A stretch of DNA of 57,139 nt. Source: a virus (taxonomy: Duplodnaviria > Caudoviricetes). Each line of letters starts with the position of its first letter. The stretch's first letter is position 1. Position numbers and translations under genes: made by a program. The stretch spans positions 1 to 57,139 of the IMG/VR virus record IMGVR_UViG_3300047554_000764; one strand, 5' to 3'. Shown here one piece after another: positions 8,752 through 9,075 of the stretch. The notes beneath the pieces are model-generated. The model was not told the origin of the DNA, did no database searches, and saw nothing but the letters and a program-made list of their open reading frames with translations.

Positions 8752-9075
8752 ATCGTTATTGATTTGATGTTCAGTGGGATTACTGAATACCCACAAGTCT
8801 AGGGCATGCCCCTTTTCACCCATAGTCCAAGTAAATGATCAGTTCACTTGTTAATGACTAGCTGGATTGACTACCAGCACCTGCTGCGGAGATCAGATAG
8901 TATATGTCTTCACAGGACCTCAGAGCTTATCAGTTACGCTACCTTTAAGATGAGTGGTTTTAACTCACATGCTTGACAGCGCCTCCCTCAAAACTTTGCA
9001 GAATTGGAAAAGCCACATTAACTCCTCTCAAGAGTTTGTTCTGTCACAAACACAAATCAAATGTCAAAGAACGAT
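8752..9075 (-). ncRNA. Candidate structured non-coding RNA of about 320 nt heading the tRNA cluster
   Basis: No ORF in the track; ends pair (ATCGTT/AACGAT, TTGATTTG/CAAATCAA, TGTT/AACA); many internal hairpins; higher GC than flanks. Confidence 0.6.
9062..9072 (-). promoter_or_regulatory. boxA-like antitermination element
   Basis: GTTCTTTGACA resembles rrn boxA (TGCTCTTTAACA / AGTTCTTTGAAA) at the head of a stable-RNA cluster. Confidence 0.45.

Follow-up and report, generated by a model that had tools for sequence, protein, structure and literature searches.

A structured RNA with likeness to manA in the tRNA and tmRNA clusters of large phages

Positions 8752-9075 of a phage DNA of 57,139 nucleotides (nt) (the window; IMG/VR record IMGVR_UViG_3300047554_000764, Caudoviricetes) hold a real structured RNA gene on the minus strand, and after comparison of 40 copies we have next to no doubt of this. 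The first-pass annotation of the window had claimed here an unannotated structured RNA of ~300 to 320 nt beside transfer RNA (tRNA) genes, which is borne out by covariation over the 40 copies. It had also placed the interval correctly, as free of open reading frames (ORFs) and ending 2 nt before tRNA-Arg; the longest ORFs overlapping 8752-9075 have 43 and 42 amino acids (aa). On balance, we favor the reading that the element is a stable minus-strand noncoding RNA of ~300 nt from an uncatalogued family in the tRNA and transfer-messenger RNA (tmRNA) clusters of large phages, that it is released by tRNA processing, and that it associates with itself. Its nearest known family appears to be the manA RNA (Rfam RF01745).

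Fold of the element across 40 copies

The copies were found in viral and metagenome contigs, amount to 40 distinct core sequences and fall into three clades, A (12 copies, window included), B, and C. Related viral contigs were reached via two flanking proteins, and nhmmer then gave the full-length element in 12 distinct contigs; for distant viral copies, short invariant stretches served as patterns, and matches to a 15-nt pattern were kept only if confirmed by nhmmer. Among metagenome contigs, a two-anchor pattern gave 36 matches, of which 32 were real copies and 4 coincidences in coding sequence; the cellular genomes scanned with a two-anchor pattern held no copies, and the 2 matches there were both in coding sequence and unrelated. 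A blastn search of 8590-9110 against GenBank phages returned 1176 records; the 40 matches listed are all confined to the tRNA part (query positions 315-521), and no element match is among them. Between the window and one related copy, L042, the element is 80% identical, compared to 64% and 53% (DNA level) for the two flanking genes, which shows selection on the element.

The folding energy of the lone sequence was considered as evidence for structure and rejected, being indistinguishable from shuffles on either strand (minus strand, minimum free energy of -87.3 kcal/mol, z = -0.74, with 21 of 100 shuffles folding equally well; plus strand, z = -0.16). The evidence comes from covariation. RNAalifold on MAFFT alignments found compensatory changes in 13 of 78 pairs with 11 sequences, in 28 of 59 with 18, and in 40 of 62 with all 40. 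A covariance model (R1) was built and the 40 copies were realigned; two loop pairings and two palindromes absent from R1 were added, giving a count of 76 pairs. In this 76-pair model, 98.0% of cells are paired (82.4 ± 0.4% in shuffles), both-side changes occur in 49 of the 76 pairs (34.3 ± 1.9 in shuffles), and the covariation score is 0.504 (0.205 in shuffles); each of these three values was reached by 0 of 500 shuffles. If the partners are slid by 1 to 3 columns, 31.5 to 44.2% of cells remain paired. Because G-U occurs in 267 of 2480 nested cells (~11%), the fold is assigned to the minus-strand transcript; the opposite strand would pair only 87% of cells. A loose all-against-all covariation screen gave 461 pairs, swamped by G-U and clade effects, and from it strictly Watson-Crick pairs alone were kept.

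From 5′ to 3′, the parts of the element in the window are as follows.

9062-9075, minus: 5′ leader with the motif AUCGUUCUUUGACA (boxA-like, contains TTGACA); specific to clade A, outside the family core
9047-9060, minus: 5′ strand of P1, UUGAUUUGUGUUUG; pairs with 8759-8773
9015-9048, minus: junction UGUGRCNGAAYAA and P2 hairpin, then UAA.G; manA-like core, from covariation and invariance
8983-9012, minus: P3 hairpin with a GNRA tetraloop (GCAA at 8996-8999); helices 4 and 5
8804-8972, minus: P4, base helix GCAUG 8968-8972/CAUGC 8804-8808 enclosing a domain of ~160 nt; helix 6
8932-8943, minus: hairpin L4a, GGU-AGCGUA-ACU; second self-complementary loop, degenerate in the window's clade
8889-8896, minus: hub CUGAUCUC; pairs with the P5 and P2 loops
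8861-8878, minus: hairpin GCUGG-UAGUCAAU-CCAGC; helix 14
8823-8860, minus: long hairpin UAGUC...GACUA with a 9-nt apical loop, L4d, containing UGAUCA at 8836-8841; helices 15 to 17
8774-8794, minus: P5 hairpin GUGGG-UAUUCAGUAAU-CCCAC, 5 base pairs (bp) and an 11-nt loop; helix 18
8759-8773, minus: 3′ strand of P1, UGAACAUCAAAUCAA; pairs with 9047-9060
8750-8758, minus: short 3′ tail separating P1 from the first base of tRNA-Arg

The conserved body thus runs from ~9060 to 8759 on the minus strand and stops a few bases short of tRNA-Arg. The closing helix P1 is wholly different in sequence between clades, with its complementarity preserved, and has compensatory changes in L042 and a further copy, L043. 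Clades A and C have a long P1, and part of clade B has a short, A/U-rich one; the duplex abuts the core directly in clades A and C and in some of B. The outer part of P1 and the P0 hairpin known from manA (AAUC/GAUU in the window) are competing pairings, with 2 compensatory changes in the former and none in P0. The junction reads UGUGAC-GAACAA in the window and is followed by the P2 hairpin (9036-9020, loop UUGAGAG at 9025-9031). Junction and P2 (helices 1 and 2) have 98.3% and 100% of cells paired and both-side changes in 7 of 10 pairs, and all 40 copies share the junction letters UGUG.C.GAA.A, AA, and G without variation. In P3, both sides have changed in 8 of 9 pairs, and the tetraloop has three forms, GAAA (36 copies), GCAA (3), and GUAA (1). 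All 5 pairs of the P4 base helix covary, with 100% of cells paired. The domain that it encloses is the most conserved part of the molecule and nearly invariant; its inner helices (7 to 16) include CCUGU/GCAGG and ACC/GGU, plus the invariant run GGGUGAAAAGGGG. Cells are likewise fully paired (100%) in the hairpin at 8861-8878, with both-side changes in 3 of 5 pairs, and in P5, where 3 of 5 pairs covary. The sequence UAUGG was considered as a canonical 11-nt GAAA receptor and rejected, its partner strand being absent.

Two loop pairings, neither of them in the model used for alignment, involve the hub. Its CUGAU pairs with the P5 loop at 8783-8787 (helix 13): columns 180/293 hold U-A (30 copies) or C-G (10), and columns 179/294 hold C-G (23), A-U (10), or no pair (7). 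Its CUC pairs with the GAG of the P2 loop at 9027-9029 (helix 3); without exception, columns 35/186 form either G-C (34 copies) or A-U (6), and the A-U copies occupy two places on the tree.

Nine helices had been proposed in the first-pass annotation, of which 6 are supported and 3 are replaced by other pairings. Supported and covarying are TTGATTTG/CAAATCAA and TGTT/AACA, which together form P1, and GCTGG/CCAGC, TAGTC-CAAGTGAA/TTTACTTG-GACTA, and GTGGG/CCCAC (P5). A further proposal, ATCGTT/AACGAT, does pair in the window and shows a compensatory change in a few relatives, but it is not conserved. TGACAG/CTGTCA, GTGAGT/ACTCAT, and GGG/CCC fail to pair in relatives; the bases join covarying helices, namely, CUC 8952-8954/GAG 8919-8921 and GCAUG 8968-8972/CAUGC 8804-8808.

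Upstream of P1, the window has GTTCTTTGACA at 9072-9062 (minus). The likeness of GUUCUUUGA to boxA, the antitermination element to which NusB/NusE bind, had been pointed out before and is judged against what we take to be the Escherichia coli rrn consensus. The motif GUUCUUUGA(C/G/A)A is kept in 12 of 12 clade-A copies, including L042 and L043, where it stands 3 nt after a tRNA. It is absent from the other 28 copies and lies outside P1 and the conserved body; clades B and C have the 3′ end of a tRNA or tmRNA at this place. The boxA-like element is, hence, a feature of one clade. We also considered TTGACA at 9066-9061 as a promoter -35 element and rejected it: the promoter scan gives no -10 partner, and a start there would remove the covarying P1 strand.

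Genomic context and relationship to manA

The copies keep company with tRNA and tmRNA genes. A same-strand tRNA or tmRNA lies within 60 nt in 37 of 40 copies (36 by ARAGORN; L092 by an Rfam tmRNA match 56 nt upstream), the strand of the element is always that of the neighboring tRNA genes, and in 30 of 40 copies a same-strand tRNA or tmRNA follows 8 to 36 nt downstream of the core. In clade C, a tRNA is found 6 to 12 nt from the core on at least one side in all 11 copies and on both sides in 9. In clade B, the element usually begins 8 to 10 nt past the encoded CCA end of a phage tmRNA. In the window's group, the element precedes tRNA-Arg or tRNA-Thr in most cases, and its position varies: it comes after tRNA-Met in L042 and between a tRNA and a tmRNA in L043. 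Two contigs of the same phage group with the same flanking genes (L009 and L010) have 141 nt between the 75-aa and 95-aa genes (~2360-2500), with no element and no tRNAs; the cassette of element, tRNA-Arg, and tRNA-Thr (~490 nt) is an insertion or deletion within the window's phage group. The varied context fits a free-standing RNA gene that uses the processing sites of its neighbors, not the leader of one particular gene.

From this context, release of the element by tRNA processing is probable. The element would be co-transcribed with neighboring genes, the RNase P cut at the downstream tRNA would define its 3′ end, and 3′ processing of the upstream tRNA or tmRNA would define its 5′ end. That tRNA processing frees the 3′ end had been suggested before, and we judge it to be the natural route given the adjacency to tRNA and tmRNA genes. 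Phage T4 offers a likeness by description, as its tRNA cluster contains two stable RNAs of unknown function, species 1 and 2 (rnaC and rnaD), that are freed by the tRNA processing machinery; at ~120 to 140 nt they are shorter than the element.

Several of the neighboring genes deserve mention in their own right. The tRNA upstream of the element at L042:3357-3432 and L043:1492-1567 is called "tRNA-???" by ARAGORN, with a two-base anticodon (Rfam, 39.7 bits); its counterpart in the window is tRNA-Met at 7922-7997 (41.4 bits). The phage tmRNA genes adjoining the element (L043:1894-2270, L079:2088-2475, L117:2215-2610, and others) encode tags ending in ELAA, AVAA, or ALAA. In L092 and L064 the tmRNA matches are longer, at 468 and 513 nt, and both escaped ARAGORN.

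At the Rfam gathering thresholds, only tRNAs are found in the window. At E ≤ 10, the region 8500-9400 gives one notable match, manA, which is full-length and has 33.5 bits (cut-off, 55.2) and an E value of 8.9e-7. No model of RNase P RNA, tmRNA, or group I introns overlaps the element at this threshold, in agreement with the first-pass annotation; tmRNA genes adjoin it in relatives. In the cmscan alignment of the window with manA, 162 nt are inserted in P4, and 12, 16, and 18 consensus positions are deleted within P3; P5 is the best match to the consensus, aligned to model positions 157-184 with high posterior probability. Matches to manA were obtained in 16 of 24 element-bearing sequences examined (the window and 8/9, 2/7, and 5/7 across three sets), with 20.1 to 33.9 bits, and in those searches none fell outside the element.

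Two canonical manA RNAs were available for comparison. That of S-CREM1 (96.6 bits) lies exactly between tRNA-Leu and tRNA-Asn; that of P-SSM2 (181.6 bits) lies between regA and purL, in a 5′ untranslated region (UTR)-like position with no tRNA nearby. R1 ranks canonical manA first in both phages (S-CREM1, 10.6 bits, E = 0.0043; P-SSM2, 5.1 bits, E = 0.26), in alignments that cover the same junction, UAA-G, and P5, and it counts against the relationship that these reciprocal matches are weak and their E values rough. No canonical manA was found in S-RIM8, S-RIM44, S-PM2, Syn9, or S-RSM4, so that the canonical sample is 2, and a blastn search of the S-CREM1 manA against GenBank phages found only itself. 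The tRNA cluster of S-CREM1 (L051, OP535465; 1746-2644) also interleaves wcaG (92.7 bits), manA, and abiF (52.2 bits, between tRNA-Asn and tRNA-Gly).

The likeness extends to architecture and habitat. Both RNAs occur in phages and aquatic metagenomes and have a junction closed by P1; J1/2 reads GUGaC-GAAUAA, followed by P2 and then UAA-G, in the element as in the manA consensus. P5, with 5 bp and an 11-nt loop resembling UA..CAGUAAU, stands beside the 3′ strand of P1 in both. Within P4, the manA consensus likewise contains a CUG that complements the CAG in the P5 loop, and this may reflect the same pairing in manA itself. The differences are considerable. The body of the element has ~290 to 305 nt, compared to 192 model positions of manA. 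P3 of manA is a three-way subjunction with GUGGUG and ACCA loops, whereas P3 of the element is a plain GNRA hairpin. P4 of manA is a short two-part hairpin with an ACUG-containing loop, whereas that of the element has ~160 nt and at least five helices and keeps only CUGAU. The element is never in a clear 5′ UTR. In the literature, we found no description of a larger manA variant, nor of manA adjoining tRNAs as a rule; the supplements of Weinberg 2010 and of the S-CREM1 paper, which lay outside the coverage, may bear on this.

Sub-threshold matches in both directions make it probable that the element is related to manA. By the Rfam criterion it is a non-member, and we class it as an enlarged manA-related variant. 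The element had been presented without known relatives, which is incomplete: manA alone gives consistent matches, below the threshold in every case, and only at this level is there the match to an Rfam family that had been named as a ground for refutation. Weinberg 2010 (PMC2864571) regarded manA, a motif of marine phages, as probably cis-regulatory and as a riboswitch candidate, located in the 5′ UTRs of genes including ibpA chaperones. A July 2026 cryo-electron microscopy (cryo-EM) preprint (10.64898/2026.07.01.735769) reports that manA RNAs form pentamer-based decamers and a 60-mer cage via kissing loops and a GNRA contact, the assemblies having a conserved core and variable peripheral helices. 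In that account the kissing interactions of manA join different loops (L5-L7′ and L8-L9′), whereas the apical loops of the element are palindromic.

The models of ROOL and GOLLD, two families that the first-pass annotation had cited as a precedent, gave no match in 8500-9400 at E ≤ 10, and none in the loci of relatives, where the limit ranged from E ≤ 0.01 to E ≤ 1 by search. According to PMC12286853, these large and ornate RNAs come from phages or prophages, have no known function, and are often encoded near tRNA islands, GOLLD env-38 being situated downstream of a tRNA-Met; they form RNA-only cages via kissing loops and A-minor contacts, and these intermolecular contacts are conserved in evolution. 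The precedent is apt in that both families self-assemble and, like the element, lie in phages beside tRNA islands; they are 2 to 3 times as long as the element, have another architecture, and share no sequence or structure match with it.

Self-complementary loops and competing readings

Two apical loops of the P4 domain are complementary to themselves. In L4d, every one of the 40 copies has a 6-nt Watson-Crick palindrome. Its two covarying versions, UGAUCA (29 copies) and UAGCUA (11), differ at both inner position pairs, which have changed together. L4a contains such a palindrome in 27 of 40 copies (UGCGCA in 22, UGUACA in 3, and UGGCCA in 2), and UGUACA has two origins, in separate clades. 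Six adjacent loop bases cannot pair intramolecularly, and the simplest reading is that two copies make a symmetric contact. The dimerization initiation site of human immunodeficiency virus type 1 (HIV-1), with its 9-nt apical loop and a 6-nt palindrome that varies by lineage yet stays self-complementary, forms a symmetric kissing dimer in this way; it is an unrelated molecule with an unrelated biology and an analogy of mechanism only. The palindromic loops, therefore, suggest that copies of the element join with each other, and with them as the basis we hold self-assembly to be quite possible.

In our model, P1 clamps a multihelix junction with a manA-like core, a fold that is itself shown by covariation, and the two loop pairings would tie P2 and P5 to the hub inside the P4 domain. 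After release, copies may associate via the self-complementary apical loops, perhaps with help of the GNRA loop, into a defined homo-oligomer; this last step is less certain and parallels what is reported for manA, ROOL, and GOLLD RNAs. The role of such an assembly could lie in scaffolding or holding a component of translation, which is a guess prompted by the tRNA and tmRNA neighbors. More tentatively still, the element may stand for a new class of self-assembling phage RNA particle, a ring or cage built by two two-fold-symmetric kissing loops and a GNRA contact, whose protomer is cut by host enzymes from tRNA/tmRNA transcripts. If so, the tRNA and tmRNA company would point to the capture or protection of translation components during infection, and manA-type RNAs in general would be stable particles and not riboswitches.

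The contigs of RNA libraries give a weak hint of a transcript. Part of the stretch was found in 24 sequencing runs, 19 of them recorded as RNA, none of which holds half or more of the sampled words. Four runs, all of assembled contigs and from four studies, were aligned to the window (stretches without contig cover are uninformative). Two metatranscriptome contigs consist of the element alone (275 nt, 8774-9047; 219 nt, 8783-9001), and two RNA-library contigs of ~269 nt span 8867-9135.

A number of points weigh against the reading of a processed, self-associating, manA-related RNA. One of five covariation measures fails, as the further pair types number 106 compared to 104.5 in shuffles, a value reached by 184 of 500. 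The alignment (A4) was fitted to the nested structure, which favors the nested pairs; the pseudoknots and palindromes were outside the model. Covariation is blind to whether the hub-P2 and hub-P5 pairings lie within one molecule or between molecules. In L4a, 12 clade-A copies, the window included, have AGCGUA or UGCGUA and are self-complementary only via G-U; L160 has no L4a palindrome either. No copy reaches the gathering score of manA (55.2 bits; best, 33.9), and 8 of 24 copies have no manA match at the thresholds used (L004, which is partial, five of one set of 7, L168, and L181). For L064, L166, and L168, the nearest 60 nt contain no tRNA or tmRNA on the same strand. A 1965-nt contig in one run spans the element, tRNA-Arg, and the upstream gene, and assembled RNA-library contigs as a whole cannot give ends, strand, or level and may include DNA. 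Processing, stability, and oligomers are inferred here.

The RNA could also be stable and processed and yet work in monomeric form; it might, e.g., bind or titrate the ribosome or a protein of the host or phage, and its palindromes would then bind dimeric proteins or be kept for another reason. We consider this rather unlikely, although all support for a processed, structured RNA applies to it equally, the window's clade lacks a perfect second palindrome, so that a two-interface assembly is not universal, and the T4 RNAs are stable tRNA-cluster RNAs of the same general kind. What speaks for self-association over a monomer is the apical palindrome of L4d, which was changed at both inner pairs and is still palindromic, as a symmetric kissing contact predicts; furthermore, the nearest known family, manA, self-assembles according to the preprint.

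Improbable in our view is a cis-regulatory element or riboswitch that senses a ligand and controls downstream genes, e.g., the 95-aa gene of the window. The classification of manA in Weinberg 2010, the 5′ UTR-like position of the canonical manA of P-SSM2, and a fold complex enough for ligand binding would all agree with it. However, the 9 copies with tRNAs 6 to 12 nt away on both sides leave no space for an expression platform, the downstream gene varies (tRNA-Arg, tRNA-Thr, tRNA-Met, tmRNA, or a 140-aa ORF), the terminator scan of the window found no terminator-like site after the element, and ligand sensing leaves the self-complementary loops unexplained. A DNA-level element (a recombination, attachment, or protein-binding site) or chance conservation with no RNA at all is hardly credible: the element and tRNA cassette is present or absent among related phages and at differing places, the loops are 6-bp DNA palindromes of the restriction enzyme type, and the single-sequence folding energy is unremarkable, but compensatory changes in 49 of 76 pairs, G-U cells (~11% of nested cells) that pair only in the minus-strand transcript, a strand that is always that of the neighboring tRNA genes, and the presence of the element in RNA-library contigs from four studies all speak for an RNA.

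Under the favored reading of a tRNA-processed, self-associating RNA, the family bears on what manA particles do and how cells make them. The 2010 classification of manA was that of an orphan riboswitch candidate, and RNA-only cages of manA are reported in the 2026 preprint. The element family would add a larger, widespread manA-like RNA in tRNA/tmRNA arrays and with it a concrete biogenesis route, and would link manA to the theme of ROOL and GOLLD, phage RNAs beside tRNA islands. Its covarying self-complementary loops offer an assembly interface open to direct tests, and the family shows that a whole branch of relatives escapes the Rfam manA model. The carriers are freshwater and marine phages, and the element is a compact new object for cryo-EM and for genetic work on phages and hosts from fresh water.

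The locus in the window

The window record has an estimated completeness of 47% and carries phage genes for a large terminase subunit, DNA polymerase, helicase, and ribonucleotide reductase. Around the element, the following genes are found.

9337-9110, minus: 75-aa ORF, directly upstream of the element
8749-8675, minus: tRNA-Arg(tct), called by ARAGORN; Rfam tRNA score, 71.5 bits
8668-8595, minus: tRNA-Thr(tgt), called by ARAGORN; Rfam tRNA score, 69.8 bits
8564-8277, minus: 95-aa ORF, after both tRNAs
Between the 95-aa ORF and tRNA-Met, minus: 84-aa ORF, placed by gene order
7997-7922, minus: tRNA-Met; Rfam score, 41.4 bits

The promoter scan found minus-strand sigma-70-like sites only at 9433-9384, within the divergent intergenic region that precedes the 75-aa ORF. 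A GroES-like identity of the 95-aa downstream protein was considered and dropped, as there is no Pfam match at E ≤ 0.1 and no PHROGs match at E ≤ 1e-5. A short A/U-rich hairpin, CAAGUUUA-AAC-UAAACUUG (9077-9097, minus), separates the element from the stop codon of the 75-aa ORF; L002 has a hairpin of other sequence at the equivalent place, and the terminator scan is silent on that of the window. Elsewhere in the window, two weak Rfam tRNA matches on the plus strand (27019-27081, 32.7 bits; 27326-27451, 35.9 bits) are not called by ARAGORN; the second is 126 nt long and would require a large insertion.

A last observation concerns L172, whose tRNA array has 22 Rfam tRNA matches and a copy of the element. 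Exactly between two of its tRNA genes, 236 nt at 11182-11417 (minus) match bacterial RNase P class A RNA below the threshold (52.5 bits; cut-off, 100; E = 1.8e-15). The match retains the catalytic-core motifs GAGGAAA, AGAU.AAUG, and AACA...UUAC, and most of the specificity domain is gone; it may be a minimal phage-encoded RNase P RNA.

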